Part shown: piece after piece, positions 3 to 24,343 of the stretch
How positions within the stretch are numbered: position 1 is the stretch's first letter
How the letters are laid out: every line of letters starts with the position of its first letter
From: Candidatus Micrarchaeota archaeon
GTDB lineage: Archaea > Micrarchaeota > Micrarchaeia > Micrarchaeales > CABMGC01
Direction: 5' to 3'
Assembly: GCA_021791075.1 (NCBI GenBank)
Contig: JAJYXH010000075.1
Span: 1-39,092, forward strand
Length of the DNA stretch: 39,092 bases
Notes under the pieces: model-generated
What the model was told of the DNA's origin: nothing
The model's input: the letters and a program-made list of their open reading frames with translations, nothing else
The model's database searches: none
Position numbers and translations under genes: made by a program

Positions 3-170
3 GCAAGGTCTTTGTTGACTCTGGTCACCACCCTCGGGTTCGCCCTCTTATTGGGCTTTCCCATACTGAAACAGTCAGTCGAAAAGGATAAGGACTTAAC
101 GTCGTTCAGGAATTATGAGATGAAGCCACTACGAGGAAAAGGTATAAAATTACGTCGTGCTAAAGTTTGA
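3..170 (+). CDS. 3' end of an unidentified membrane-protein gene (partial, runs off the left edge)
   Basis: Frame 3 is open from the window edge to TGA at 168-170. The tail ARSLLTLVTTLGFALLLGFPILKQ... contains one hydrophobic helix. No family recognised. Confidence 0.3.
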   Translation, partial: ARSLLTLVTTLGFALLLGFPILKQSVEKDKDLTSFRNYEMKPLRGKGIKLRRAKV

Positions 171-223
171 AATAGTCACAAAAAATTACTTTCAATAGGA
201 TAAAAGCAAAGCTTGGTGCTGGG

Positions 224-1612
224 ATGCTATTCAAGAAGTTTCATATAGAAAGTCTTGACTATTACAAGAAATGGCTAGTGCTTGGTATAATAATAGGAAT
301 AATAGCGGGTCTTGTTTCCGTACTGTTTTATTATGCTACAGAAGCTTCTGAAAATTTCTTTATGCATTACGTGATGGGCTATAGCAGGCCCTTGCCTTTG
401 GGTGAAGGCGAAAACTTATCATATGTGTTTGCAATCATAAGGCCATATCTCATACCGATTTCAATCATACTGGGTGCGCTCATATCTGCATGGTTAGTAT
501 ATAGGTTTGCCCCTGAGACGGAAGGGCACGGGACGGACGCCGTAGTAAAAAGTTATCATGAAGGCAAGGTTATAAGGGCAAGGGTAAGCATAATAAAGTT
601 TGTTTCTGCATCGCTGCTAATAGGAAGCGGCGGCAGCGCTGGCAGGGAGGGCCCTATCGCCCAAATATCAGCTTCTACAATATCCAATATCTTCAAGCGT
701 ATAAAACTATCAAAGAGGGACAGACAGATAATACTTGCCGTTTCTATAGGCGCCGCCATAGGTAGCATCTTTAAATCTCCTTTTGGCGGTGCGCTCTTCG
801 GCGCAGAGGTGCTCTACAAGAGAGATATAGAAGGTGATGTTATATTTCCAGCTTTCGTGGCAAGCACCGTAGGTTTCATGGTTTACGGCGCTTTCGTGAA
901 CTACCTTCCGATGTTTGGCATTAACGCACTTTCGGCCTATGCTCAAACTATCATTTATACCCCTCTTGTTATACTTGGATTTGTCTTTTTGGGCTTGGTC
1001 TCTGGTGTTTTCGCAAAGGCATATGTGAAAATCTTCTATTTCTTCCACAGGAAAATCAAAGCGTTGAAGATGTCACGATATTTCAAGCCTGCACTAGGAG
1101 CAATAGGAACTGCGAGTATAGCATTGCTCTTTCCAGAGGTTATGGGTATCGGCTACGGCTGGGTGCAATTGATGATTTCGGGCAACCTGACGGCACTTCC
1201 TGATTTTCTAGGTCTATCTACTCTGCTTTTTGTTTTTGTGCTTATTTTTGCAAAGATATTTGCAACATCATTCTCAATAAGCTCTGGAGGGAGCGGAGGG
1301 GTATATGCACCTGGTATATTCATAGGTGCGTCTGTCGGCCTGTTCACTTTTCTCCTCTTGAACATGGCAAGTCCGCAAGTGTTCGGTCTCGCAATACTGA
1401 CACCTTTCGTTATTGTCGGCATGCTTTCACTTTTTGGCGCAGCGAGCAAGGCACCTATCGCAGTAGCAATAATGGTCGTTGAGATGACAGGAAGCATATT
1501 GATAATACCGGTTGCAATGATATCTATAGCGATAGCATACGCGCTGAGCGGCAACGATACGATATACATTTCACAAAAGGAAAGAAGGAAATTCAAAAGC
1601 ACAAAGCATTAG
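224..1612 (+). CDS. ClC-family chloride channel / H+-Cl- exchanger, without CBS domains
   Basis: 462-aa ORF with ATG at 224 and many hydrophobic segments. It carries ClC filter motifs GSAGREGP (gating Glu) and GGVYAPGIFIGA. The first filter motif reads EGHGTD instead of GSGIPE. Confidence 0.88.
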   Translation: MLFKKFHIESLDYYKKWLVLGIIIGIIAGLVSVLFYYATEASENFFMHYVMGYSRPLPLGEGENLSYVFAIIRPYLIPISIILGALISAWLVYRFAPETEGHGTDAVVKSYHEGKVIRARVSIIKFVSASLLIGSGGSAGREGPIAQISASTISNIFKRIKLSKRDRQIILAVSIGAAIGSIFKSPFGGALFGAEVLYKRDIEGDVIFPAFVASTVGFMVYGAFVNYLPMFGINALSAYAQTIIYTPLVILGFVFLGLVSGVFAKAYVKIFYFFHRKIKALKMSRYFKPALGAIGTASIALLFPEVMGIGYGWVQLMISGNLTALPDFLGLSTLLFVFVLIFAKIFATSFSISSGGSGGVYAPGIFIGASVGLFTFLLLNMASPQVFGLAILTPFVIVGMLSLFGAASKAPIAVAIMVVEMTGSILIIPVAMISIAIAYALSGNDTIYISQKERRKFKSTKH

Positions 1613-1707
1613 CAACATGATTTCTATTTTGCAAATAACACTTTTGCTTTAGCAGTGCATTAGCTTACCTTAAATACCTGCAGTTGCTGCATAAAACACA
1701 TCATATA

Positions 1708-1782
1708 AGCCCCGAGAGGGATTCGAACCCTCGACTTCTAGTTTACGAAACTAGCGCTCTAACCGGGCTGAGCTACCGGGGC
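1708..1782 (-). tRNA. tRNA-Thr (anticodon CGU)
   Basis: The reverse complement folds by hand into a 75-nt cloverleaf. Acceptor GCCCCGG/TCGGGGC, D stem GCTC/GAGC, anticodon stem CTAGT/ACTAG with loop TTCGTAA, T arm GAGGG-TTCGAAT-CCCTC. No intron and no encoded CCA. Confidence 0.92.
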
Positions 1783-1887
1783 ATATTGCCATGCGGTATA
1801 AATAGGTATATCAAAGATTAATAAAGTGTAATCATATAGTCTAAACGGCCTCTTTTTCGGCCATCAGCAGTAATTTACGGTGCAGTC

Positions 1888-4800
1888 ATGGTTAGGAACG
1901 CTTATTTCGCACAGATGCCTGGGAATCCGGGAGAGCAACCAGGAGCTCCAGGCGCTCCAGGCGCAATGCCCGGCCCGTCACAGCCTCCTTCTCGCCAGTT
2001 CCCGCAGCAGCAAGGCCCGATCCCAATAAAGGAGGGAGGCTCCGAGAAGCCCGACGAACTCGTCGAAGAGGTTAACAGGAAGGCCCACCAGAAGAAGATC
2101 GAGACCAAGCTTTTGTCGTATGCCGTAATCGCAATAATCATAGTCGCAGCCGGAGCCTACCTCATACCCCCTCTCCTAAAGCCATCGCCGGTCACCACAT
2201 CAACGACCACCGTTGCCCCGCAGATATTCAAGATATCATCCTGCACTGTCATCACCAAGAGCGGCACCTACTACATCACGGGCAACATCGACACGGCGAT
2301 CCAGAGCGGCTCGTGCATAGATATAATGAGTCCGAATGTCAAGCTTATAGGCAACGGGAACGGCATCCTCGGAAGCGGCCCGTTCGTGATAACGCCGCCT
2401 TTCTCCTACGGGATAAGGATTGACGACGCGAACAACGTCTCTCTCCAGGGGGTGAGCGTCTCAAGATTCTCGTACGATGTCTACCTTAACAGGTCATCGC
2501 AGTCTTCAATACTCAACAGCAGCATAAGGAACGGGACCGTCTCTGGAGTCTACCTAAATTCATCGGTGGGCGACACGCTTGCCAATGACAGCATCTCAGG
2601 GATATCGGGCCCGGCGGGGGCAATATCGCTTCAGGGCGGAGGAAGCTCAACCGTCACCAATGCGGTGATCCAGGGCAATGCATACTACGGTGTTGTCATA
2701 GCCTCAACGGGGAACAGGTTCTCGAAGCTCACCTTCCTAAACAACCCCGTCGACCTGATATGCTCGGGAATCGCAAGCTTCAGCTCGGAGAACAACTTCA
2801 CCGGCTCCACCTGCAGCGTAAACAAGTACTGCGAGTTCGCATACTGCTCAAAGGTCAACCTTCCGGCAAACATAAGCTCTATAACGCTCACAAGGCAGAT
2901 CACAGGATGCGGAGGCATAAGCTCCCCTGGCATCTACCAGGTCCAGACCAACCTCAACCTCTCATCCTACGCCAACGTCTCGGCATCCCCTTCTGTTGCA
3001 TGCATAACCATAACAGCTTCAAACGTAAGGCTGAACTGCAACAACAACGCGATACTCCACTCGGGCTACGGCGTCTCGATACCCTCTCTGGGAACCAGCC
3101 TCTACAACATCTCGATATCCAACTGCACGTTCGCCAACTACACCCACGCCATAAACGTCGGCCAGGTATTCGGATTCAACATAACAAACGTCCGTGCCTC
3201 GGGCGGCGGTGCGGCCATATACCTCCAGAACGGCACGCAGGGAACGGTCTCAAATTCCGTGCTCTCGAGGAACACGTACGGAATATACATCAACGGCACT
3301 TCAACCGGCATAACATTCAGCAACGTGACAGCTCAGGGCAACATCTACGGAGTCTACGCTGCCGCTGGCCAGGCCAACATATATACGCAGAGCAAGTTCG
3401 TCAACAACAGCAAGGAGGACCTGTACTGCACCGCGTCGCAGTACAACTCGCAGAGCAACATATTCGTCAACAACGAGTGCGGCACAACGGACTGCAACTG
3501 GGGAACAACATGCAAGACCCGCACCCTTCCTCCAATAAGCGTCTATCCGCTGAGCGGCTGCTCCACCATAGACACGCCGGGCAACTACTCTCTGAATGCC
3601 GACATAGACACGCAGGGCAACTGCTTCGCCATCAAGGCGAGCAACGTCAACCTCGCCTGCAACGGACATTACATAACGGGAGGTTTCGCAGGCAACGCGG
3701 TCTACGGGTCCGGGGTAAACAACATAACGTTCAACAATTGCAAGATCCAGAACTTCAACACCGCACTTAACTTCAGCAACTCCAACCATCTGAGCTTCAG
3801 TAACATCACAATAAACCAGTCCGGAACTTCAGTATCCATTACAAACAGCATATTCGACAGTATAGTAAAGGTCTCGTCAATACTCGGCGCCCACGGATTT
3901 GTGTTCAAGTACGTAAACGATTCCACTCTTACTAATGACTCGGCGATCTCGGGAAGGCAGAGCGCATCAGGATATCTGCTGAACTACTCATACAATAACC
4001 TAATTGCCTACGACGTCGCATCCTCAAACAATAATTACGGGTTCGCGTTCCTAAACTCAAGGAACAACCAGGTCTCCAACAACACCGCGCAGGGCAACCT
4101 GAAGAGCGACTACTACTGCTCAGCTAACTCCGGAGGACTCTACGCGCAGCAGGGTGGCATAAACAACGGGGTCAGCAAGCAGAACTGCATCTGGCTCGTC
4201 GAGGTGCAGCCCATACCCCAGCAGAACCTCTGCCAGTCTATAAGCAGCTCGGACATAATAACGCTTACCCAGGACATGGTATATCCATATGGCCACGCAT
4301 GCTACACGGTCTACAATACGAATTCCTCTAGCGGCAACGACACCGTGATAAACTGCATGGGACACACCATCTACGCCACGAGAGGCGGAACTTTCGTTGA
4401 CGACATCAACTCCAGCAACGTCCACGTCTCGAACTGCTACCTAAAGTACTTCACCAAGCCGATAATAGTCCAGGGCCCTAACGCGCAGATATACAACAAC
4501 ACTATCGGATCGTCGAACGCATCCATAAGCCTGATCAACGCGTTCAATCCAGTCGTGCGGACCAACAACATAACGAACGCCTCATACGGCATCTTCGTCC
4601 AGTCTGCCGACGACGGCCAGATAAAGAACAACATCCTGACCAATGCGAACATCAGCATCTCGGTGATCGGGTCTGCGAGCCTGCAGGTGCTTAACAATAC
4701 GGTGACCGGCGGATCGCTGGGTCTCTTCATGGAAAAATCGGATGAGATAGTCGTAGGATCAAACCATCTAACCCCTCCAACATCATCTGGAATAGTGTGC

Positions 4801-4911
4801 TCAACAGGATCCAAGAACACAAGCTCCTCGAATGTGGACTTCGGTGACAACGTCTGCTCCGGCAACCAGAACTGCAACTGGATGACCTCGTCGCCTCTGT
4901 GCAAGGTCTGA
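1888..4911 (+). CDS. Membrane-anchored, Cys-rich right-handed beta-helix (PbH1/NosD-like) surface protein with four tandem modules
   Basis: 1007 aa with an ATG start. It has a Pro/Gly/Gln-rich N-terminus, one TM helix (aa ~75-95), and a Thr-rich linker. Four ~220-aa modules follow, each opening with C-x(6-9)-G-x-Y... SNV-x-L-x-C-N-G and full of short N/G/S/T-rich beta-helix turns. I count at least 35 N-x-S/T sequons by eye. Confidence 0.8.
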   Translation: MVRNAYFAQMPGNPGEQPGAPGAPGAMPGPSQPPSRQFPQQQGPIPIKEGGSEKPDELVEEVNRKAHQKKIETKLLSYAVIAIIIVAAGAYLIPPLLKPSPVTTSTTTVAPQIFKISSCTVITKSGTYYITGNIDTAIQSGSCIDIMSPNVKLIGNGNGILGSGPFVITPPFSYGIRIDDANNVSLQGVSVSRFSYDVYLNRSSQSSILNSSIRNGTVSGVYLNSSVGDTLANDSISGISGPAGAISLQGGGSSTVTNAVIQGNAYYGVVIASTGNRFSKLTFLNNPVDLICSGIASFSSENNFTGSTCSVNKYCEFAYCSKVNLPANISSITLTRQITGCGGISSPGIYQVQTNLNLSSYANVSASPSVACITITASNVRLNCNNNAILHSGYGVSIPSLGTSLYNISISNCTFANYTHAINVGQVFGFNITNVRASGGGAAIYLQNGTQGTVSNSVLSRNTYGIYINGTSTGITFSNVTAQGNIYGVYAAAGQANIYTQSKFVNNSKEDLYCTASQYNSQSNIFVNNECGTTDCNWGTTCKTRTLPPISVYPLSGCSTIDTPGNYSLNADIDTQGNCFAIKASNVNLACNGHYITGGFAGNAVYGSGVNNITFNNCKIQNFNTALNFSNSNHLSFSNITINQSGTSVSITNSIFDSIVKVSSILGAHGFVFKYVNDSTLTNDSAISGRQSASGYLLNYSYNNLIAYDVASSNNNYGFAFLNSRNNQVSNNTAQGNLKSDYYCSANSGGLYAQQGGINNGVSKQNCIWLVEVQPIPQQNLCQSISSSDIITLTQDMVYPYGHACYTVYNTNSSSGNDTVINCMGHTIYATRGGTFVDDINSSNVHVSNCYLKYFTKPIIVQGPNAQIYNNTIGSSNASISLINAFNPVVRTNNITNASYGIFVQSADDGQIKNNILTNANISISVIGSASLQVLNNTVTGGSLGLFMEKSDEIVVGSNHLTPPTSSGIVCSTGSKNTSSSNVDFGDNVCSGNQNCNWMTSSPLCKV
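4607..4911 (+). repeat. Direct repeat copy A (last 305 nt of the beta-helix gene)
   Basis: Hand alignment to 7214-7518 (offset 2607) shows only 4 substitutions before the last 5 nt. Confidence 0.95.
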
Positions 4912-10542: not shown

Positions 10543-13500
10543 TCATCCCTTCGCTCTTGCCTTGATATTTGATATCTCGTCCAGCAAGTCCCTCGACTCG
10601 TTGTCGAGCATGTCCGGGAACTTGTATCTCAATGAGCGTTCGTTCTCGTCGTTCATGAAGGTGTACAGCGTCTCGTTCTCCCTTACCTGCCTGCCGAAGG
10701 TCACGTCCTCCATCGAGATGGCGATGCTCTCCCCAGCCTTCGACTCCTTGAGGCTTATCGCGTTGTCCTGCATCTCCTTGACCCTCCCGACTATCTCGCC
10801 GTGCTGGTTCATCAGCTGCCACGAGGGCCTCAGCCTTCCCCTCTCTACCTTCACCCCGAAGACCGCGGGATGTGAGACCCTGAAACAGCTGTTGGGGAGC
10901 ACCGTCAGCTTGCCCGGGAAGACCAGTGACTTCTCTATCGCCTCCTTGTCAATCTTCCTCTCCGCATCGGCCCACTCCTTGTAATCGTCAATTATCTTGT
11001 AGATTATGTTGCTGTTTATTACCCTAATCCCCGTTGCCTCACTCTCGGCCTTCGCCTCGTCGTCAAGCGGTACGTTGAACGCGAGCACGATGCCCCCGTA
11101 GGGGTCGCTCGCCTTCATAGTGTATGCGTCGAGCACGTCCCTCTTTGTCACCCTCCCTATCTCCTTCTTGCTTATGCTTATCTTCTCTGCTCCGAGGAGC
11201 CTCGATAAGGCCTCTATGCTCCCCATCGTGTCGGCCTTCAGTATGACCCCCGTCTTCTCCACGTCGAATATCTCGCTTATCTCCGACTTTATCTCCTGCT
11301 CGTAGTTCGGTATCTCGGTGGAGAGGACCAGCGACCCCGGAAGCGCTCCGTCGAGGTTGGACGCGCTTATCTTTATGCCTGAGGCGGCGCTCACGCTGTC
11401 TATGTAGTAGAACTTGCTCGACGACTCGCGCAGCTCCTGGAGCTCCTTGGGCTTGAGCAGCGCCTTTATCTTCGCCGTGTCTATCCCAGCCGATGTGGCG
11501 AACGCAATGGTGTCATTTACCTTTAGCGTCCCGTTGTAGAGTATCACGTCTATCGTTGACCCGAGCCCCCTGTCCTCCTTCTTCTCTATTATGTTGCCCC
11601 TCCCAGGCCCCTTTACCTCTATCTCAAGGCGCTGCTCCAGGAACCTCTGCGCCAGCCCGGTCGCGTACATGAGCAGCTCCCCGAGCCCCTCCCCTGTCTT
11701 GGCGCTCACCGGAACTATTATTACCTCCTTCTTGAAGTCCTTGACCCTGTCGAACCTCTCGCTGTTGAACCCGAGCTCGCTCAGCTTGCCCACGAGCCCG
11801 TAGATCTTGGCCTCGAGGTCGTTGACCACGTTGCTCCTCTGTTTCGAGATCGTCTCCGTGAATGAGTTAGTAGACTGGATCATCCATCCGGTTATCGCGT
11901 CTATCTTGTTCGCGGCGACTATGAAAGGGGTCCTGTACTCCTTGAGTATCTCTATCGCCTCGTACGTCTGGGGCTCGAAGCTCTTCGTGACGTCTACAAC
12001 GAGTATTGCAAGGTCCGCAACCGACCCTCCCCTCTTCCTCAGGTTGGTGAAGGCCTCGTGACCCGGGGTGTCTATGAAGAGGAGCCCGGGTATGGTGATC
12101 TTGATCCCGAACTTCTCAAGAAGCGGTCCCACTATCTTCTTGATCACGTCAAGGGGGACCTCGCTCGCTCCTATGTGCTGCGTAATGCCCCCTGCCTCCC
12201 TAACAGTTATCGTCGTGCTTCGGATCTTGTCGAGAAGTGAGGTATTGTGTACAATCAGGTTATTTGCCATAAAGTTATGGGTACCATCTACGGTAAAGTC
12301 ATACACTGAGAAGTCCCCCTTCAGGGATTCGGTACCGGTAACTGCAACTGTCTTATATGAAGAGAGCACCGAAGCGACTGGCAAGGCCGCTGTCTCATCG
12401 CTAAAGCCCAGTATTGTTCTGGCGGCGTATCTTGTCAAGTTATTCTTAGACTCATAATAGCCCAGGTCAAATCCGCGTCTTCCGTGTATGTTATACTGAC
12501 CCCTAAGTTCCTTCACGAACCTTCCGCTAAGCGGAGTCATGTCGAATATCCTGCTTGAAACTGCCTTTCCAATATTTCTATTAAGCTTCTCTGCCTTACT
12601 TGGCTCTGTAAAGCCAATGTTTTCTGCAAAGGCAGCAAGGTTTTCCAATCCACTTATGCTGATCTCCAGGGCAGTCCGTTTATATCTCTTTACAAAGTAT
12701 GACAGGCACCCGAATCTGTGTAGCAATGCGGGCAATTGCCTCATCAACACCTGACTCTCGCAGCTAACCCCTATGCTTCCGGTATAATTCTCTGACTCTG
12801 CGAACCCTTCAGCATCGAAGAAACCCTGAACAAACTTTCCGGCAAGGCTGTTGTCCGACATGCTTACTATATCGGGCAGTGCAAGTATCCTTGTCTTGTC
12901 CTTTTCCGGATAGTCAAACACAGCCACTAGAAACTTAGAGAAAGTCCTGCCCCCTTTGTGGTCGACAATATAAGATGTTCTGCGCCAGGCAGATGTTATG
13001 CCTATTCCAAAAGATTTTGTTAGGCACTTCCCAAACTTATCGATCAAGACTTGCGATGTATTGCTCAGTTTCGCCGAAGACCCGATCCCGTCACCGAACA
13101 ACAGCCCGACGGCATAATAAAGTGCCTCAAACTCCTCGCGCTCATGAGGGATCTTCAACCAGTATGATGTGTGACCTGCCCTTCTCTTTTTGGTGCTTGA
13201 CTTTATCGCGTCTATATTATCATAAATCTCCTCTTTGGGATACCCCATGAGAAAAAGAAGGCGCATCAGCACCGATGGCCGGTAGAATCCGCGCCTTAGA
13301 TGATTGTCAAGCGTGGCGTCACCTATCTCACCAGCGAGCTTGTACACCCTGCCACTGCAATAGCGCACGATCTTTTCGTTGAGGCCCTTCGATATCTTAA
13401 CTAGGAAGGTGTCTGGAAGCTTTTCTATTATGCGCTCCTTTATTCCGGTCAGATTCAGTGCTGAGGTATCTGTCTTCAAAGGCACCAATAGCAGATCCCC

Positions 13501-13878
13501 AGCGCGTAGCTCCTCTGCCTTCTTATACGCCGCCGTTCCATCCTCACAAAAGACTAGGAACTTATGCTCCGGAGTGGTCTTTATCTCATAACCTGCCTTT
13601 GTGGTAACGCGGATAAGTCGGTCTGCCTTAAGCTTCAGTACATGACTGACATCCCTGGGAGAGGCTTTACCCCACTCGTCTACCGAGACGAGCGCCATTC
13701 CAGAAGCCTTGTATGCTATGCCATCTGGCTGACTTATGGGGGATCCGTCATTAAAGGTATTGAATGCCGATTCTGCAGACATGATCCTTCCATCGCCTAT
13801 CTCAAGTAGGGTATCTCCGCTAACACATTTGCCATGGTCCACGTGGCCCATCACGCAAATTATCGGCTGACGTATCAT
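10543..13878 (-). CDS. infB: Translation initiation factor aIF5B (IF-2), interrupted by an intein
   Basis: P-loop GHVDHGK, then the intein, then TSLLDKIR. Also DTPGHEAF and NKID GTPase motifs, and a long aIF5B-type C-terminal region. ATG at 13878; the track start at 13887 is GTG. Confidence 0.95.
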   Translation of the reverse strand: MIRQPIICVMGHVDHGKCVSGDTLLEIGDGRIMSAESAFNTFNDGSPISQPDGIAYKASGMALVSVDEWGKASPRDVSHVLKLKADRLIRVTTKAGYEIKTTPEHKFLVFCEDGTAAYKKAEELRAGDLLLVPLKTDTSALNLTGIKERIIEKLPDTFLVKISKGLNEKIVRYCSGRVYKLAGEIGDATLDNHLRRGFYRPSVLMRLLFLMGYPKEEIYDNIDAIKSSTKKRRAGHTSYWLKIPHEREEFEALYYAVGLLFGDGIGSSAKLSNTSQVLIDKFGKCLTKSFGIGITSAWRRTSYIVDHKGGRTFSKFLVAVFDYPEKDKTRILALPDIVSMSDNSLAGKFVQGFFDAEGFAESENYTGSIGVSCESQVLMRQLPALLHRFGCLSYFVKRYKRTALEISISGLENLAAFAENIGFTEPSKAEKLNRNIGKAVSSRIFDMTPLSGRFVKELRGQYNIHGRRGFDLGYYESKNNLTRYAARTILGFSDETAALPVASVLSSYKTVAVTGTESLKGDFSVYDFTVDGTHNFMANNLIVHNTSLLDKIRSTTITVREAGGITQHIGASEVPLDVIKKIVGPLLEKFGIKITIPGLLFIDTPGHEAFTNLRKRGGSVADLAILVVDVTKSFEPQTYEAIEILKEYRTPFIVAANKIDAITGWMIQSTNSFTETISKQRSNVVNDLEAKIYGLVGKLSELGFNSERFDRVKDFKKEVIIVPVSAKTGEGLGELLMYATGLAQRFLEQRLEIEVKGPGRGNIIEKKEDRGLGSTIDVILYNGTLKVNDTIAFATSAGIDTAKIKALLKPKELQELRESSSKFYYIDSVSAASGIKISASNLDGALPGSLVLSTEIPNYEQEIKSEISEIFDVEKTGVILKADTMGSIEALSRLLGAEKISISKKEIGRVTKRDVLDAYTMKASDPYGGIVLAFNVPLDDEAKAESEATGIRVINSNIIYKIIDDYKEWADAERKIDKEAIEKSLVFPGKLTVLPNSCFRVSHPAVFGVKVERGRLRPSWQLMNQHGEIVGRVKEMQDNAISLKESKAGESIAISMEDVTFGRQVRENETLYTFMNDENERSLRYKFPDMLDNESRDLLDEISNIKARAKG
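12244..13827 (-). mobile_element. 528-aa intein with a LAGLIDADG homing-endonuclease domain, inserted in the aIF5B P-loop
   Basis: Starts CVSGDTLL directly after GHVDHGK. Block B TTPEHKF. LAGLIDADG motifs LLFGDGIGS and FVQGFFDAEGFA. Ends ...THNFMANNLIVHN followed by +1 Thr (TSLLD). Removing it gives a ~585-aa aIF5B. It looks more A+T-rich than the exteins. Confidence 0.92.
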
Positions 13879-14047
13879 CTTCTCCACTTCAGTATGAGTA
13901 CAATCTCAATTGCATACAAAATATATAAATAGACGGTAAAGTAGAGCTTATTGCCTGTGGTGAATTGATGATAAGCGTCAGAGCACGGTTAACATTATAT
14001 AAATCCTACGGCAGCATATAGTAAATTGATTTGATAGTGGCGAGTGT

Positions 14048-14593: not shown

Positions 14594-14819
14594 GCCAGGT
14601 CTGCTTATGGCAAAGGAAAGGGAGATCATAATACTCGATGTGGACAAGGGAAAGTTGAAGGGGTCACAGGGAGCTGGGAGCCAGGCACACGGGAACCTAC
14701 CACTTCAAGAGGATTGAGTTCGTCTTTGGTGGGGACATAAAGGTCAAGCACTTCTGGGCAGGATAAGGACTGATGGAAAGGAGATCACGATCTATTGTAA
14801 AGGCAAAGCCATACTGCTC

Positions 14820-15125
14820 TCAGACCTGCATGCTCATCCTGACCTCCTCCGTTATCATCTCCGGGGTCCACGCGGGCTCCCATACCAGGTCTATGTTTAC
14901 CTGCCCCGCATCCTGGATATGCTCCAGCCTTAGCTGCACGTCGGCAAGGATTATGCTTGTGACAGGGCACATCGGGCTCGTCATGGTGAGCCTTATGCTG
15001 ATGTTGTTCTCCCTGTCTATGGTTATTCCGTGGATCAGGCCAAGGTCGACTATGTTTATCCCTATCTCAGGGTCGACGCAGCCTTTGAGCGCAGTTATTA
15101 CCTGATCGATCGTTATCTTCTGCAT
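14820..15125 (-). CDS. DUF59/MIP18-family Fe-S cluster assembly protein (SufT/PaaD-like)
   Basis: 101 aa: ...VITALKGCVDPEIGINIVDLGLI...LTMTSPMCP... This is the characteristic DPE-hxxxhV-LGLh and T-x-x-x-CP pattern. Confidence 0.85.
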   Translation of the reverse strand: MQKITIDQVITALKGCVDPEIGINIVDLGLIHGITIDRENNISIRLTMTSPMCPVTSIILADVQLRLEHIQDAGQVNIDLVWEPAWTPEMITEEVRMSMQV

Positions 15126-15229
15126 ACGTTAATACGCTTGGCCGTAACCCTTATTTTAACTTATCGTTGGCACTCCCCACGGCCTCTCATGGCCATACGC
15201 CAACTTCGGCACGAAGAACCAGGTCCAGG

Positions 15230-15367
15230 TCAGCAGCAAGTGCAGCCGCACTTTGCCTTCTTTCCGGCGCAGCAGCTGCAATCACAGCAGGGGCAGCAGT
15301 TCATGCAGCACTCCTCCTCCTCCTTGCTCGGCTTTCTGGACGTTCTTCGCACTGCCTTTTTCGCCAT
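15230..15367 (-). CDS. Unannotated 45-aa cysteine-rich (13 Cys) metallothionein-like peptide
   Basis: ATG at 15367 to TGA at 15230-15232: MAKKAVRRTSRKPSKEEEECCMNCCPCCDCSCCAGKKAKCGCTCC. It fills an otherwise empty ~290-nt gap. The overlapping plus-strand track ORFs look like antisense artefacts of TGC/GCA repeats. A TATA-like box lies 23 nt upstream. Confidence 0.55.
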   Translation of the reverse strand: MAKKAVRRTSRKPSKEEEECCMNCCPCCDCSCCAGKKAKCGCTCC

Positions 15368-15390
15368 ATTGTCAATTAACAGAAGCCAAA

Positions 15391-15398
15391 CTATTTAT
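15391..15398 (-). promoter_or_regulatory. TATA-like box (ATAAATAG) for the Cys-rich ORF
   Basis: 23 nt separate the box from the ATG at 15367, so it is centred ~27 nt upstream. That spacing fits an archaeal leaderless transcript. Confidence 0.35.
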
Positions 15399-15414: not shown

Positions 15415-16821
15415 CTAGGCCGTGCCCGATAGGTAAGAGCCTGCATTGCCGATCACGTGTATCAGCGGCTGCGGGAATATTCCGAAGACAAATACGATCA
15501 ATATGCACAGCACCACCACGACCCAGATGCCCCTGCCAAGCCCTATCTTCTGCGCATCCTCCTTTGTTGCGTACGCCGCTAGTATCGGCCTGGCATAGTA
15601 GTATATCGATATTATGCTGTTTATTATGCCGATTATCGCGAGCCAGAGGAGCCCGGCGTTTATCGCGCTCACGAAGAGGAGGAACTTGCCGATGAAACCC
15701 GTGGTGAACGGAAGGCCTATCAGGGAGAGCATGAAGAGCGCCATCGCGAACGCGGCGAGCCTGTTCTCGTCCTTGAGGCCTATCAGGTCGTCTATCTCGG
15801 TCCTGTTCCTCGACTCGAGCCATGCGACTATTGCGAGAAGGCCTATGAAGAGGATCATGTGCGAGAAGATCTGGAAGAGAGCTGCCGTTATTCCCGCCGC
15901 GCTTGCAGTGGCGATGCCTATCATTATGTATCCCGCCTGCGAGATCGACGAGTATGCGAGCATCCTCTTCACGTTGCGCTGCATTATCGCGACCAGGTTC
16001 CCGTAGAACATTGTCAGGACCGAGAGTATGGCTATTATCATGAATGCGGAGCCGTACGATACGAAGAGGAGCATCATTATCTGGATCAGCGCAGCGAACC
16101 CGACCTTCTTGTTTATTCCTCCGAGCATCGCCGTTGCGTAGGCTGGAGATCCCTCATAGACGTCCGGGATCAGCACGTTGAACGGGAAGATCGAGGCCTC
16201 GAAGCCCAGTGCCGCGATGAAGAGCACAACGGCGAGAATCAGTATGTCTGTCTGCTGTCCCGCCTGATGCAGGCTTATGCTGTTCGTTCCGCCGTAGAAG
16301 ACGACGATCGCGAACGAGAGTATGGCTATGCCTATGGAACCCATTATGAAGAGCTTTGTTGCGGCCTCGAGGCTCTTTCTTGACAGGAGTATCATGAACA
16401 CGGTCGGTATGGTCAGCAGCTCAAGGCCGATGAATACCGTTACCAGCGAGAGCGAGGACGCGACCAGGTAGATTCCCATCAGCGAGAAGGATGCCATTAT
16501 GGAGAAGTCATCAAACCGCGGTGCGTAAGAGTACGCTATCTGGGTGACGAGAAGCAGCCCGAAGGTCATTATTGCCATGAAGAAGAGCGAGAACGGATTT
16601 ATCGAGATCACTCCAAAGGCTGTCGCCGTGGAGTTGCTGTAGAGCATCCAGCCCAGAAGCGCAACGAGAAGTATCATGACCACGGTGTTGTATGCAAAAT
16701 TGAGTTTCTCCCTGTTTGTCATCCGTATTATTATGTTTCCGAGGACCAGCAGCGCCGCTAGTCCGAACAGGATGTGGGGCAGTGTTGCAAGCCCGATTAT
16801 CTGCGATATGCCGAATGCCAT
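15415..16821 (-). CDS. nuoN: NADH-quinone oxidoreductase subunit N (ND2-like antiporter subunit)
   Basis: ~468 aa and polytopic. The motif FPFNVLIPDVYEGSPAYATAML matches the NuoN-type PDVYEG signature rather than NuoM (AHVEAP). ATG at 16821 overlaps the nuoL TGA (TGATG); the track start at 16824 is TTG. Confidence 0.82.
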   Translation of the reverse strand: MAFGISQIIGLATLPHILFGLAALLVLGNIIIRMTNREKLNFAYNTVVMILLVALLGWMLYSNSTATAFGVISINPFSLFFMAIMTFGLLLVTQIAYSYAPRFDDFSIMASFSLMGIYLVASSLSLVTVFIGLELLTIPTVFMILLSRKSLEAATKLFIMGSIGIAILSFAIVVFYGGTNSISLHQAGQQTDILILAVVLFIAALGFEASIFPFNVLIPDVYEGSPAYATAMLGGINKKVGFAALIQIMMLLFVSYGSAFMIIAILSVLTMFYGNLVAIMQRNVKRMLAYSSISQAGYIMIGIATASAAGITAALFQIFSHMILFIGLLAIVAWLESRNRTEIDDLIGLKDENRLAAFAMALFMLSLIGLPFTTGFIGKFLLFVSAINAGLLWLAIIGIINSIISIYYYARPILAAYATKEDAQKIGLGRGIWVVVVLCILIVFVFGIFPQPLIHVIGNAGSYLSGTA

Positions 16822-18608
16822 CAAGCCACCATGTATACGTATGCGAGCAGGAAGATCAGGCCTATGATAAAGATGAATGCATACGGATTGATCGCCCCTA
16901 CAGAGATCCTCCTGAAACGCGACGCTATGACTATTACCGTGTGACCAAGGTAATCCAGGGCCGTGTTGAGCGAGTCGTCCAAGAATCCTATCCCGTCACC
17001 GATATAGTATACGAACTTGGCCAGAAGGTTGTAGACCGCCATGAAGACCATGTGGCTATAGACCAGGGGCTTGAGCGGCCCCATCCCGACCCGCGAGAGC
17101 CTCTTCGGGTATCTCGACGCGTAGACGAGATAAGATATCACCGCCCCAGCAATTATGAGAACCGTGAAGATTATGGCATCGTATAGTCCTATTCCCAGCG
17201 GCAAGCTGTTCGAGAGGTAGGGTGCAGACGCAGCGCCTTGGGAGAGAAACCTCTCTATGCCAAGGAAGATGACCGATGCCGCAACGGTGCCCAGCGCCAG
17301 CAGCGCTGCAGGATAGACGATGCGCCTCGACTCTCCGGAATACCTGATCTCAACCCCCACTCCTGCAGGCCGCTTAGATACGTTGAAGAACCACCTGAAT
17401 ATGTAGAAGCTCGTTCCGAAGCCCACGAGCGAGATTATTACGTACACGAGCATATTGCCAAAGATCGTGGTATCAAGGCTCGCCGCTGCAAAGAAGCCAG
17501 AGAGCGGGAAGAAGCCAGCCAACGAGAGGACGCCTATCAACGTCGATGCAAAGAGGAGCCTGTTCGATCTGAGCCCGGACACGTTCCCGAGATGCTCCTC
17601 ACTGGTCGATCTCATTATCGAGCCGGAGCTTAAGAAGAGAAGCGCCTTGTAGAAGCTCTGTATGACGAAGAAGTATATCGCGGCGAATATCGCACCCACG
17701 CTTACGGCGATCAGCATCAGCGCAAGCTCCTGGACCGTGGAATATGCAAGCACCTTCTTTATCTGCGTCTCCTTCATCGCATTCAGGGTGGAGATGACAG
17801 CGGTGATTATCCCCACCACGAGTATAACCGGAAGCACATTGGCGCCATATAGGAGCGGAAAGAGTATTATCGCGGCAAAGACCCCTGCCTTGACCATTGT
17901 GCTCGAATGCAGGAACGCGGATACCGGGGTGGGCCCCTCCATTGCCTCTGGAAGCCACTCCTGGAACGGGAACTGCGCCGACTTCGTGAATATCGCAAGC
18001 AGCAGGAGCAGAACCCCCGCATAGAGCCTTATCGGTATCACGGCTGGGACGGATGCAAGTATCGTGGAGAACTCAAGGCTTCCGAAGTAGCTCCAGAAGA
18101 TCACGATCGCCGCTATCAGCGCTATGTCGCCTATGAAGACGGTCGTTACGGCAAGCCTTGCGGCCCTGTTGGCCCTGTCCCTGACGTGCCAGAACCCTAT
18201 GAGAAGGTAGCTTAAGAGGCTGAGGAACTCCCATGCTATGAAGAGGAGTATGAAGTTTCCGCTCATCGCGAAGATGACCATCGAGATCTCGAATGCGAGC
18301 ATCTCGGCGTAGTACCTCCTCTGCTCGCTCAGCAGCTCCATGAACGCCGATGAGTATACCATTATCAGCGAGCCTATGAAGAGAACGACGAAGAGAAGCG
18401 CGAGATTGAACTGCTCTATGGTCATCGTTATGTTGAAGGTGAAGTTGCCTATGATGAACCACGGGAGCGTAGTCGTGCCGTACGAAATGAAGTAGAGCAA
18501 CAGAAGGCCGGACATGCTCCCCACTACCGCGACGTACTTGGACCATCTCCTGTTTCCGGACAGCAGCACAACCGCTAGTGCAGCAAGCATCGGCACTACC
18601 AGCAACAA
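16821..18608 (-). CDS. nuoL: NADH-quinone oxidoreductase subunit L (ND5-like)
   Basis: 595 aa with the motif FPFQEWLPEAMEGPTPVSAFLHSSTMVKAG and a long C-terminal extension. The start at 18608 is TTG; an alternative ATG is at 18590. Confidence 0.9.
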   Translation of the reverse strand: MLLVVPMLAALAVVLLSGNRRWSKYVAVVGSMSGLLLLYFISYGTTTLPWFIIGNFTFNITMTIEQFNLALLFVVLFIGSLIMVYSSAFMELLSEQRRYYAEMLAFEISMVIFAMSGNFILLFIAWEFLSLLSYLLIGFWHVRDRANRAARLAVTTVFIGDIALIAAIVIFWSYFGSLEFSTILASVPAVIPIRLYAGVLLLLLAIFTKSAQFPFQEWLPEAMEGPTPVSAFLHSSTMVKAGVFAAIILFPLLYGANVLPVILVVGIITAVISTLNAMKETQIKKVLAYSTVQELALMLIAVSVGAIFAAIYFFVIQSFYKALLFLSSGSIMRSTSEEHLGNVSGLRSNRLLFASTLIGVLSLAGFFPLSGFFAAASLDTTIFGNMLVYVIISLVGFGTSFYIFRWFFNVSKRPAGVGVEIRYSGESRRIVYPAALLALGTVAASVIFLGIERFLSQGAASAPYLSNSLPLGIGLYDAIIFTVLIIAGAVISYLVYASRYPKRLSRVGMGPLKPLVYSHMVFMAVYNLLAKFVYYIGDGIGFLDDSLNTALDYLGHTVIVIASRFRRISVGAINPYAFIFIIGLIFLLAYVYMVA

Positions 18609-23932: not shown

Positions 23933-24343
23933 ATGGCAGCTACAAGCGGCGGAAGCAGTGGAGTGTTTACTAGTGACCTGAGCACATCGGACTTTTGGAT
24001 GCTGCTCGACAAAGGCTACATGCCTGTCGGGCTTGTGCTGGGCAATTCTGTGTACAGCATGGGCGTCGTGGGCGGGTTGGGAAGCGCTGTGAAGGGAATG
24101 TCAAAGGGGGAGGTCCCGCAGATAACAGAGCTGATGTACAATGCCAGGGAGCTTGCACTGGGCAGGATGAAGGACGAGGCCGAGAAGCTCGGGGCAGATG
24201 GGGTCATCGAGGTCAAACTCAACGTGGTGCCGATGGGAAGCTGGATGGAGATAACCGCGATAGGCACCGCAATCAAGTTCGTCGGAATCAAGGGCGGCGG
24301 GTCTGGAAACAAGCCGACCATAGTGCTTCCTCTCGACAAGTGA
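23933..24343 (+). CDS. YbjQ/UPF0145 (DUF74) family protein with an N-terminal extension
   Basis: 136 aa. The core ...ELMYNARELALGRMKDEAEKLGADGVIEVKLNV...MEITAIGTAIKF matches my recollection of the YbjQ-family consensus. Confidence 0.78.
   Translation: MAATSGGSSGVFTSDLSTSDFWMLLDKGYMPVGLVLGNSVYSMGVVGGLGSAVKGMSKGEVPQITELMYNARELALGRMKDEAEKLGADGVIEVKLNVVPMGSWMEITAIGTAIKFVGIKGGGSGNKPTIVLPLDK

Follow-up and report, generated by a model that had tools for sequence, protein, structure and literature searches.

A cysteine-rich micro-gene beside a DUF59 gene in a small Micrarchaeota clade and its candidate metallothionein-like product

The micro-gene and its surroundings

The window, by which we mean the whole 39,092-nucleotide stretch of DNA that was analyzed, contains a minus-strand open reading frame (ORF) that runs from ATG to TGA between the last antiporter-like complex I subunit gene and a DUF59 gene (Table 1). 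Its 45-aa product is MAKKAVRRTSRKPSKEEEECCMNCCPCCDCSCCAGKKAKCGCTCC, and we recovered it exactly as a preliminary description of this DNA had given it. The gap itself, from the stop codon of nuoN to the start codon of the DUF59 gene, measures 289 nt, in good agreement with the 290 nt reported there. The peptide is composed of a lysine- and arginine-rich head (residues 1 to 15), a run of glutamates (residues 16 to 19), and a 26-residue core. All 13 cysteines lie within these last 26 residues, where we counted five CC, five CxC, and one CxxC motif, and both the half-cysteine tail and the clusters that had been described are thus present. As also described, the cysteine codons are almost all TGC (12 of 13). 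The codon usage of the micro-ORF matches that of the host genes (TGC:TGT, 56:12; AAG:AAA, 294:40; GAG:GAA, 284:48). Throughout the six frames of the window, the next-best 26-residue stretch harbors 7 cysteines, compared to 13 in the micro-ORF, and when the bases of the window were shuffled 200 times the highest count was 5 to 9. The overlapping plus-strand ORFs are Ala/Leu-rich and Gln-rich and are shadows of the micro-ORF, as had been proposed.

Table 1. Features of the nuoN-DUF59 region, in window coordinates
Feature	Position	Strand	Remarks
DUF59 / FeS_assembly_P gene, 101 aa	14820..15125	-	Pfam PF01883, E = 9.5e-16
DUF59 promoter box CCAACGATAAGTTAAAATAAGGGTTACGGC	15141..15170	-	TATA TTAAAATA at 15152-15159; predicted to be independent of the peptide gene
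Spacer, peptide stop codon to DUF59 promoter box	15171..15229	-	59 nt, poorly conserved
Cys-rich micro-gene	15230..15367	-	45 codons + TGA; orthologues in L091-94 and L099
(GAG)4 run encoding EEEE	15311..15322	-	In-frame length polymorphism
TATA-like box ATAAATAG	15391..15398	-	Starts 31 nt upstream of ATG, centred at -27.5
Last antiporter-like complex I subunit gene (nuoN-type)	15415..16824	-	Pfam PF00361

The TATA-like box upstream of the micro-gene lies at a distance that suits a leaderless archaeal mRNA, as the preliminary description had pointed out. A related A/T-rich box followed by GTTKGGCTT is retained upstream of the peptide gene in two related loci, L091 (GCATAAAGTTGGGCTT) and L099 (GAAATAAGTTGGGCTT), and the sequence beyond this box is unrelated in both. 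Judging from this arrangement, a TATA box of its own probably drives transcription of the peptide gene into a leaderless mRNA. The promoter and terminator scan used a bacterial sigma-70 model and is not informative for an archaeon. The DUF59 gene has a promoter box of its own, identical in all peptide-bearing lineages bar one G/C position, and the ACGATAnnTTAAAATA core of this box is also found in the peptide-less lineages L103 and L267. This comparison indicates that the DUF59 promoter is independent and ancestral.

The DUF59 gene is the only neighbor retained in all three peptide-bearing lineages. In the window species only, nuoN lies upstream of the peptide gene; the orthologues lie downstream of either a DUF3311/SSF transporter pair or an IS110 transposase. 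The suggested tie to the complex I operon is therefore incidental. In six peptide-less loci (L012, L014, L103, L267, L268, and L269), nuoN abuts the DUF59 gene directly, with a gap of 37 to 115 nt, and elsewhere among the relatives the gap holds PIN/VapB, a 114-aa ORF, a formyltransferase, or 292 nt of unrelated filler. These arrangements point to the nuoN-DUF59 gap being an insertion hotspot, and the peptide copy in L099 is flanked by IS110 and ParE. A small ORF unrelated to the micro-gene, Cys/Gly-rich and with a coiled coil, is located 0.03 to 2.3 kb from the DUF59 gene in five other Micrarchaeota lineages (L013, L016, L017, L018, and L039). Its assignment in L013 and L016 to a DUF5320-type protein was rejected, as it had no Pfam match.

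Orthologues, selection, and distribution

Two diverged orthologues were located by synteny in sister lineages, one of 41 aa (L091 to L094) and one of 38 aa (L099). When they were aligned with the window peptide, 12 cysteines were in register and every indel was a multiple of 3. Likewise, L002, L005, and L008 harbor one additional GAG in the glutamate run (EEEEE) and keep the frame intact. Synonymous divergence was equal in the micro-ORF (pS, 0.37 to 0.52) and in the DUF59 gene (pS, 0.31 to 0.53), and pN/pS of the micro-ORF was 0.17 to 0.39. Of the 78 nucleotide columns of the core, 20 were variable, and none of these fell into the 24 first and second positions of the 12 invariant cysteine codons (exact P = 1.6e-4); these selection statistics are based on three diverged sequences only. 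The cysteine codons changed three times, in each case synonymously between TGC and TGT. Six further residues are invariant across the orthologues (N23, G35, K36, K37, K39, and G41). Finally, identity between the window and L091 or L099 was 77 to 83% in the ORF core versus 56 to 58% in the spacer that follows the stop codon. The pattern of substitutions indicates that selection keeps the 12 to 13 cysteines and leaves the intervening residues free to vary.

The orthologous gene is annotated in L091 to L093 and in L099, and the micro-ORF was left uncalled in all 10 same-species contigs. With its frame kept, its pN/pS below 0.4, and its cysteine codons varying only synonymously, the micro-ORF bears the marks of purifying selection, and it is very probably a real protein-coding gene, overlooked by annotation as the preliminary description had held.

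All close relatives of the flanking genes belong to Micrarchaeota/Micrarchaeaceae metagenome-assembled genomes (MAGs), and the host is thus a member of the DPANN and not, as had been assumed, of the Thermoplasmata. The relatives come from acid-mine-drainage sediments, their MAG names agreeing with those of a survey in which 90 such sediments yielded 151 Micrarchaeota MAGs (PMC12153355). A thermopsin and a CLC channel are also encoded in the window. The peptide gene occurs in a single small clade: it is absent from at least 10 sister lineages, and the DUF59 gene occurs without it in every other lineage sampled across Micrarchaeota. The peptide is also missing from sister Micrarchaeota MAGs whose names follow the same site-code scheme, and it is therefore not a general requirement for life there. 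No gene remnants were found in the peptide-less relatives by blastn-short or unfiltered tblastn; one match in L012 (E = 0.004) was rejected because it was out of frame and contained stop codons. The micro-gene is young and lineage restricted, and it may have been inserted, or have arisen, in the ancestor of the small clade, at a site bounded by the last complex I gene and the promoter of DUF59.

Protein searches returned nothing. A word-index search of 5.8e9 sequences with the peptide and the four-sequence alignment gave no match, but a cysteine-rich query of about 40 aa cannot reach significance there, and the orthologues and the window peptide have no 5-residue word in common. An exhaustive phmmer search of 1.84e9 representatives gave no match either. 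By exact-sequence look-up, the called 41-aa orthologues were themselves missing from a collection of 15 billion proteins, and the negative protein searches therefore say little about distribution. In a scan of JGI metagenomes with CCxNCCxCC, no Micrarchaeota-type member was present among the matches listed, nearly all of which were (TGC)n or (TGT)n repeats; the only useful one among them was the contig L173, which encodes a phage-type peptide (see below).

Possible functions of the peptide

The four peptide variants have a mass of 3.97 to 5.02 kDa and contain 28 to 34% cysteine, with five CC and three to five CxC motifs. None harbors Phe, Trp, or Tyr, and the only histidine is a single one in L091. 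They thus display the sequence-level traits in the operational definition of a metallothionein, that is, a mass below about 10 kDa, richness in cysteine arranged as CC, CxC, and CxxC, and absence or scarcity of aromatic residues and histidine. A linked metalloregulator, which is also part of this definition, is not adjacent in the contexts of the window, L091, or L099; no metal regulator of the ArsR/SmtB, CsoR, or CopY type and no metal efflux gene adjoins the peptide gene in the three lineages. No Pfam family matched at an E value of 1 or below, and hence no metallothionein family; no NCBIfam family matched any variant at an E value of 10 or below, and the only match among PDB sequences was a spider toxin (E = 0.54). 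Since no curated family matches, the assignment to metallothioneins is one by composition. Of the metallothionein-like clusters claimed earlier, the sequence-level composition is therefore borne out, while a family match and a linked regulator are missing. An AlphaFold prediction from the single sequence and without metal gave one short helix and no confident fold (pLDDT, 70; pTM, 0.47). The sequence displays no hydrophobic segment, and the peptide is therefore probably cytosolic.

We propose that the apo form of the peptide would have little structure and that its fold would form around a metal-thiolate cluster, in which the vicinal CC pairs and the CxC motifs could chelate soft thiophilic ions, namely Cu(I), Zn(II)/Cd(II), and possibly As(III)/Hg(II). 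In this way, the peptide may serve to buffer metals or to render them harmless where the habitat is acidic and rich in metal. We infer transcription, translation, and metal binding of the peptide, as well as the identity of the metal. To the statement as a whole, mechanism included, that a real, young, lineage-restricted gene encodes a metallothionein-like metal-binding peptide, we give about an even chance. None of the papers available to us uses the phrase "archaeal metallothionein," and the available portions of reviews on bacterial metallothioneins name no archaeal one, which is in line with the earlier view that such proteins are essentially uncharacterized in Archaea.

The downstream gene suggests another role, in which the peptide would be an Fe-S-linked protein working with DUF59 (SufT/MIP18-type), as a carrier of a transient Fe-S cluster, iron, or persulfide sulfur or as a scaffold tail. 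DUF59 is indeed the sole neighbor kept in the three lineages despite the upstream flank having been rearranged twice, and its neighborhood repeatedly hosts Cys-rich small ORFs (the five loci named above). However, with only about 100 nt between the peptide gene and the DUF59 gene, their co-retention needs no selection, and the DUF59 gene has its own invariant and seemingly ancestral promoter behind an unconserved spacer. Moreover, at least 10 sister lineages and others throughout Micrarchaeota have DUF59 but not the peptide, and the peptide contains no ferredoxin-type CxxCxxC...CP motif; to our knowledge, Fe-S clusters are not typically liganded by vicinal CC pairs. We thus regard a function tied to Fe-S clusters as unlikely.

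The window peptide has a 9-cysteine module, CCxNCCPCCxCxCC, in common with a family of 23-aa phage peptides. The pattern CC-x-N-CC-[PS]-CC-x-C-x-CC was found in the window peptide (CCMNCCPCCDCSCC) and in the phage peptides (CCGNCCPCCSCECC), with the same spacing, the same Asn and Pro, and the preceding acidic residue or residues. About 16 viral contigs and the metagenome contig L173 encode M[NK]N[LV]xE[KE]CC[GD]NCC[PS]CCxCxCC[EG][EK], and a 27-nt pattern was found 43 times in the viral collection, while by our own estimate well under one match was expected by chance. The phage peptide gene shares an ATGA overlap with a 184-aa gene that lies upstream of the terminase, within bacterial-looking head-packaging modules of tailed phages with about 40% GC; the 184-aa gene had no tblastn match in cultured phages, and we found no literature description of the peptide family. 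The phage peptides differ from the window peptide in being acidic (pI 4.2) and in having neither the basic head nor the 4-cysteine GKKxKCGCxCC tail. This tail motif followed by a stop codon had no match in viral contigs, and a viral scan with the relaxed module CCxxCCxCCxCxCC gave only poly-Cys repeats among the matches listed. Head and tail thus differ between the two kinds of peptides, and the module consists of 14 low-complexity residues, which is too short for statistics. It is doubtful that the window peptide represents an archaeal (DPANN) metallothionein family whose minimal metal-cluster module, free-standing in tailed phages, was captured and extended. Under such a capture, acid-mine-drainage Micrarchaeota would have added the basic head and a second, 4-cysteine cluster as a recent adaptation to metal stress.

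The same resemblance could also mean that the peptide is a micro-protein derived from a mobile element or virus and kin to the phage family, for example a Zn-dependent regulator or an anti-host or anti-virus factor. In addition to the module spacing and the 43 pattern matches, the insertion-prone gap, the presence of IS110 and ParE beside the L099 copy, and the limitation of the gene to one small clade would fit such an origin. Nevertheless, so short a low-complexity stretch cannot establish homology, and the phage peptides differ in charge, head, tail, and genomic setting. We consider this origin quite unlikely, and it would in any case be compatible with a metal-binding function.

The two-part build of the peptide, a variable charged head of 12 to 20 residues followed by a conserved Cys-rich core, and its size, close to that of SCIFF, recall the precursor of a ribosomally synthesized and modified peptide of the SCIFF/ranthipeptide, thioamide, or thioether type, with the head as leader and the tail as core. 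This reading is improbable: neither the window nor the L091 and L099 contexts contain a maturase (radical SAM, YcaO, lanthipeptide, or other) or a transporter near the peptide gene, no NCBIfam precursor model matched at the threshold given above, and the neighbors, apart from DUF59, differ between the lineages. Still less probable is a regulatory ORF, that is, a leader rich in cysteine codons that would sense the supply of Cys or Cys-tRNA and tune DUF59 expression. The 13 cysteine codons do lie on the same strand just upstream of a gene whose pathway consumes cysteine sulfur, but the spacer behind them is the least conserved part of the region, had no Rfam match, and shows no conserved structure or hairpins. 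The invariant BRE/TATA-like box of DUF59, which lies between the two ORFs, also occurs in peptide-less lineages. Six invariant non-cysteine residues would be needless for a pure codon sensor, and we know of no established case of leader-peptide attenuation in Archaea. Lastly, the idea of a chance ORF in a TGC-rich repeat-like stretch, or of a plus-strand shadow, could invoke the missing calls in the same-species contigs, the absence of the peptide from protein databases, and GCTGCTGC-like strings within the ORF, but it is largely refuted by the conserved frame, the Cys-specific selection, the annotated orthologues, the outlying cysteine density, and plus-strand ORFs that extend into nuoN and DUF59, a pair that does not occur together in the sister contexts. 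Peptides of this length are evidently left out of the databases, so that their absence there is expected.

Should the peptide indeed bind metals, it would represent the metallothionein type in Archaea, and in a genome-reduced DPANN symbiont. The locus also exposes a blind spot of annotation, as the gene was left uncalled in the same-species contigs and profile searches cannot score such peptides; only synteny or scans for DNA patterns can reveal families of this kind. The very narrow distribution of the gene and the insertion-prone gap make the locus well suited to the study of recent gene gain in an extreme habitat, and the module common to the phage micro-peptides offers a second, independent system for the function of a 9-cysteine mini-cluster.

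Comparison with known cysteine-rich peptides

SCIFF ("six cysteines in forty-five residues") and ranthipeptide precursors have about 45 residues and consist of a leader and a Cys-rich core. They differ from the window peptide, which has no adjoining radical-SAM maturase and no NCBIfam match. Examples of metallothioneins are the vertebrate alpha-domain (KKSCCSCCPVGCAKC...CSCCA), yeast Cup1, and the Neurospora Cu-metallothionein. The window peptide resembles metallothioneins in its size (4 to 5 kDa), its cysteine content of about 30%, its CC, CxC, and CxxC motifs, its lack of aromatic residues, and the lysines between its cysteine clusters. As in metallothioneins, its cysteines are invariant, its other positions evolve fast, and no confident fold is predicted in the absence of metal. 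On the other hand, its five vicinal CC pairs within 26 residues are packed more densely than in typical metallothioneins, its host is an archaeon (DPANN), and it has no detectable relation to a curated metallothionein family or to a solved metallothionein structure.

Among prokaryotic proteins, SmtA and BmtA are likewise small and cytosolic, and they bind Zn/Cd. SmtA differs from the window peptide by its zinc-finger fold with Cys and His ligands (56 aa with 8 to 9 cysteines) and by its pairing with the repressor SmtB, and its Pfam model gives no match to the window peptide. MymT of M. tuberculosis is induced by copper and belongs to the copper-responsive RicR regulon (PMC3944814), while no regulator adjoins the gene of the window peptide. 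MymT is also a precedent: its 4.9-kDa Cys-rich ORF had likewise gone unannotated, and the product later proved necessary for resistance to Cu, with a predicted capacity of up to six Cu(I) (PMC7558416). Both are prokaryotic Cys-rich peptides of about 5 kDa from small ORFs missed by annotation, and both have a narrow taxonomic range (PMC7558416).

The cysteine-rich reading frame and its transcription signals

A 289-nt interval separates the DUF59/FeS_assembly_P gene from the last antiporter-like gene of complex I and houses a minus-strand micro-ORF with exactly the sequence quoted in the preliminary description. All 13 cysteines lie within the C-terminal 26 residues (the core), and 12 of their 13 codons are TGC, the near-uniform usage reported earlier; the plus-strand ORFs that overlap the frame are rich in Ala/Leu and in Gln, again as described. 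Preferences for TGC, AAG, and GAG agree with those of host genes. The frame is a strong outlier for Cys density: when every stop-free segment of the window is considered in its six frames, the runner-up has 7 Cys per 26 residues, and the maximum in 200 shuffled windows was 5 to 9.

An A/T-rich box begins 31 nt 5' of the ATG and is centered at -27.5. In archaeal promoters, a box at such a distance from the ATG yields a leaderless or nearly leaderless mRNA. The geometry bears out the spacing claimed previously, and a leaderless or nearly leaderless transcript is predicted. The sister-lineage contigs L091 and L099 keep a related box followed by GTTKGGCTT, and their DNA farther upstream is unrelated. 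The 30-nt DUF59 box is identical across peptide-bearing lineages bar one G/C position; since its core also occurs in the peptide-less lineages L103 and L267, it represents DUF59's own ancestral promoter. The peptide gene forms a unit of its own, occupying the stretch from the nuoN stop codon to this promoter. Rfam gave no match in the peptide-gene region.

Coordinates of the features discussed (L-numbers denote retrieved contigs)
Feature	Sequence	Position	Strand	Details
Cys-rich micro-ORF	window	15230..15367	minus	ATG to TGA, 45 aa, MAKKAVRRTSRKPSKEEEECCMNCCPCCDCSCCAGKKAKCGCTCC
A/T-rich box ATAAATAG	window	15391-15398		
nuoN, last antiporter-like complex I gene	window	15415..16824	minus	PF00361
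DUF59/FeS_assembly_P gene	window	14820..15125	minus	PF01883
DUF59 promoter box	window	15141-15170		30 nt, CCAACGATAAsTTAAAATAAGGGTTACGGC
36-aa ORF	window	14607..14717	plus	MAKEREIIILDVDKGKLKGSQGAGSQAHGNLPLQED
1007-aa protein	window	1888..4911	plus	
aIF5B/IF-2 gene	window	10543..13887	minus	1114 aa
YbjQ_1 domain protein	window	23933..24343	plus	
nuoN directly abutting DUF59	L012, L014, L103, L267, L268, L269			gap 37-115 nt
Filled nuoN-DUF59 gap	L095-98	2210..2500		292 nt unrelated sequence
PIN/VapB toxin-antitoxin pair + 114-aa ORF	L011, L101, L102	~1243..2407		upstream of DUF59
Formyltransferase + 85-aa ORF	L100	1240..2454		upstream of DUF59
Second small ORF near DUF59	L013	2832..3044	minus	
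Second small ORF near DUF59	L016	2850..3143	minus	
Second small ORF near DUF59	L017	~2862..3002	minus	
Second small ORF near DUF59	L018	~3413..3526	minus	
Second small ORF near DUF59	L039	~79..189	plus	
23-aa peptide	L173 (metagenome contig)	4612..4683	minus	among the matches listed

Orthologues and selection on the reading frame

The micro-ORF was present in 10/10 same-species contigs, chosen by an identical DUF59 protein, and annotated by gene callers in none of them; three carry one additional in-frame GAG (EEEEE). A word-index protein search and exhaustive phmmer returned no matches to it, negatives that are uninformative for technical reasons, the protein collection lacking even the called 41-aa orthologues (exact look-up). 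Orthologues were obtained by synteny, from contigs retrieved via DUF59 proteins at graded identity. One sister lineage, L091-94 (DUF59 90% identity), carries a called 41-aa orthologue gene, MAKGAKKASKKSEEMCCTNCCACCHDGCCTGKKTKCGCECC, and the other, L099 (87%), carries (MVD)MAKKASKKSEEMCCTNCCACCDCGCCNGKKAKCGCDCC, both ~100 nt 5' of DUF59. The alignment keeps twelve Cys in register and shows N23, G35, K36, K37, K39, and G41 to be invariant, and every indel is a multiple of three.

By Nei-Gojobori counting on the three diverged sequences available, pS of the peptide ORF was 0.37 to 0.52 and pN/pS 0.17 to 0.39; DUF59 gave 0.31 to 0.53 and 0.06 to 0.16, respectively, in the corresponding genome pairs. 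As the pS values are alike, silent change in the ORF matches that of a bona fide gene. In the core, 20 of 78 nucleotide columns vary. The 12 invariant Cys codons contribute 24 first- and second-position columns, and no variable column is among these (exact P = 1.6e-4); Cys codons show three changes, each of them TGC/TGT. In the spacer 3' of the stop codon (56 to 59 nt), identity of the window to the sister lineages is only 56 to 58%. The overlooked gene claimed in the preliminary description, and the purifying selection proposed as its check, are both borne out by the preserved frame and the purely synonymous Cys-codon changes, and we regard the protein-coding status of the micro-ORF as established with high confidence.

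Distribution, phage peptides, and alternative readings

In other relatives, nuoN abuts DUF59 directly or different sequences occupy the region upstream of DUF59 (see the table), and no remnant of the peptide gene was detectable in any of these contigs. In a DUF59 neighbor-joining tree, the three lineages with the peptide group as a clade of their own. The most parsimonious history is one recent acquisition at a site prone to insertions; the stretch separating the complex I operon from DUF59 is a hotspot for them. Because the upstream neighbor is a divergent DUF3311/SSF transporter pair in L091 and an IS110 transposase in L099, the association with complex I emphasized earlier is a positional coincidence of this species, and DUF59, about 100 nt away, is the sole persisting linkage. 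The L095-98 filler contains a GC-rich hairpin (CCCCGGGCTAGAGTCCGGGG), and the DUF59 gene is the exact end point of several same-species contigs. Between NDK and DUF59 lies a 36-aa ORF with a counterpart called in L001, L003, and L010.

The peptide might instead be a micro-protein derived from a mobile element or virus. Scanning the DNA of viral contigs for CCxNCCPCC yielded 43 matches, against an estimated chance expectation of well under one. Fourteen of them (L224, L228, L230, L231, L232, L237, L238, L246, L252, L257, L259, L260, L264, L266), together with L402 and L173, encode a 23-aa peptide with nine Cys, M[NK]N[LV]xE[KE]CC[GD]NCC[PS]CCxCxCC[EG][EK], in which Ser replaces Pro in L402. These contigs have a GC content of ~40%, and the conserved Cys positions alternate freely between TGT and TGC. 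The gene lies just 5' of the large terminase and a T4-like portal, its start sharing an ATGA overlap with a conserved 184-aa gene that had no match in cultured phages. Its module, CCxNCCPCCxCxCC, has exactly the spacing of the window peptide's first nine Cys, and both peptides share the Asn, the Pro, and a preceding acidic residue. However, the phage 23-mers have neither the basic head nor the GKKxKCGCxCC tail, the latter being absent from all viral contigs in a DNA-pattern scan. The likeness covers 14 residues, too short to decide between homology and convergence; whichever applies, the module is found again as a stand-alone unit.

Viral contigs L396, L419, L420, L422, and L426 hold 350- to 666-codon frames with 97 to 148 Cys in CCTNCCGCCACDCC-like repeats, possibly a repetitive Thr/Ala/Ser-rich gene read out of frame. 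A conserved DNA element of many viral contigs (L226, L233-L236, L240, L243, L244, L247, L248, L253, L254, L256, L258, L261, L262, L265; GC 0.55-0.61) reads in one frame ...SCCCPNCCPCCP[NK]SQLFSS[ST]SRHFPPVVSESQ... and is probably a conserved gene or element seen out of frame, unrelated to the 23-aa family.

A RiPP precursor is a further candidate; however, no maturase-like gene (nor a metalloregulator) lies nearby in the window or either sister context, and no NCBIfam model, precursor models included, matched at E <= 10. The idea of an Fe-S-linked partner of DUF59 draws on their retained adjacency and on a different Cys/Gly-rich, coiled-coil small ORF that recurs 0.03 to 2.3 kb from DUF59 in other lineages, but it is weakened by independent promoters, a spacer that is not conserved, a distance so short as to be trivial, and the many DUF59 genes without the peptide. 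That second small ORF, unrelated to the window peptide and without a Pfam match, combines N-terminal CxC repeats (e.g., MNDKQCNCDNEGGKQCSCGS...GQCGCGG) with a coiled-coil-like K/E-rich tail. A role as Cys-sensing leader ORF of DUF59 conflicts with the latter's own promoter, the poorly conserved spacer, and the invariant non-Cys residues. That the frame is not a gene is largely refuted by its synteny-found orthologues, with their in-frame indels, low pN/pS, and constrained Cys codons.

Host and metallothionein-like composition

The hundreds of DUF59 protein relatives all belong to Micrarchaeota/Micrarchaeaceae MAGs (a few labeled Marsarchaeota); the window therefore comes from a DPANN archaeon and not from the Thermoplasmata, as had been supposed. 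Genes for a thermopsin protease, a CLC channel, and MscL are also present in the window, consistent with an acidophile. The names of many related MAGs (FK, MAS, TL, YP, DX...) agree with those of an acid-mine-drainage survey that recovered 151 Micrarchaeota MAGs from 90 sediments (PMC12153355), from which we infer that the window population itself derives; the habitat is plausibly metal-rich.

Elsewhere in the window, ~8.5 kb from the peptide gene and just past the point where the nuo operon starts, lies a gene for a YbjQ_1 ("putative heavy-metal-binding") domain protein. The 1007-aa protein has repeated right-handed beta-helix/NosD-like domains (periplasmic copper-binding protein family) and is probably a surface protein. 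The aIF5B/IF-2 gene contains an intein with a LAGLIDADG homing-endonuclease domain; the 583-aa versions of very close relatives (L002) and of L095-98 apparently lack it, which looks like a presence/absence polymorphism among near-identical genomes.

The peptide matched no Pfam family at E <= 1 and no PDB sequence except a spider toxin (E = 0.54), and AlphaFold gave no confident fold (pLDDT 70, pTM 0.47). The peptides are 4 to 5 kDa, 28 to 34% Cys, with five vicinal CC pairs, three to five CxC motifs, Lys-flanked clusters, no aromatics, at most one His, and no hydrophobic segment; non-Cys residues turn over fast relative to the fixed Cys. At the sequence level, these are the features by which metallothioneins are recognized. 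The mechanism with the best support would be buffering or detoxification of soft metals by a cytosolic peptide folded around a metal-thiolate cluster; given a real gene, we put metal binding at slightly better than even. The earlier interpretation thus keeps its hidden gene and metallothionein-like composition and loses its taxon and complex I link. The gene is solid and tractable, the adaptive story plausible, and the phage parallel intriguing, within the bounds of a very narrow distribution and three diverged sequences.

None of the ten papers listed in a literature search contained NCCPCC, CCMNCC, or CCTNCC, and the phrase "archaeal metallothionein" was absent from the papers searched; the only match noted for CCPCC was the eukaryotic PI4KII-alpha palmitoylation motif. 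We describe a new lineage-restricted Cys-rich peptide family, none having been found described in Archaea in that search. Vertebrate metallothionein domains bind three M(II) with 9 Cys and four with 11, and vicinal Cys pairs serve As(III) and Hg(II) in ArsD and Mer proteins. The window peptide could plausibly hold ~4 divalent ions or 6 to 8 Cu(I). It fell outside the curated metallothionein sequence families, and its likeness to metallothioneins is one of composition. The closest precedent is MymT, a 4.9-kDa Cys-rich ORF that, according to PMC7558416, was likewise non-annotated.
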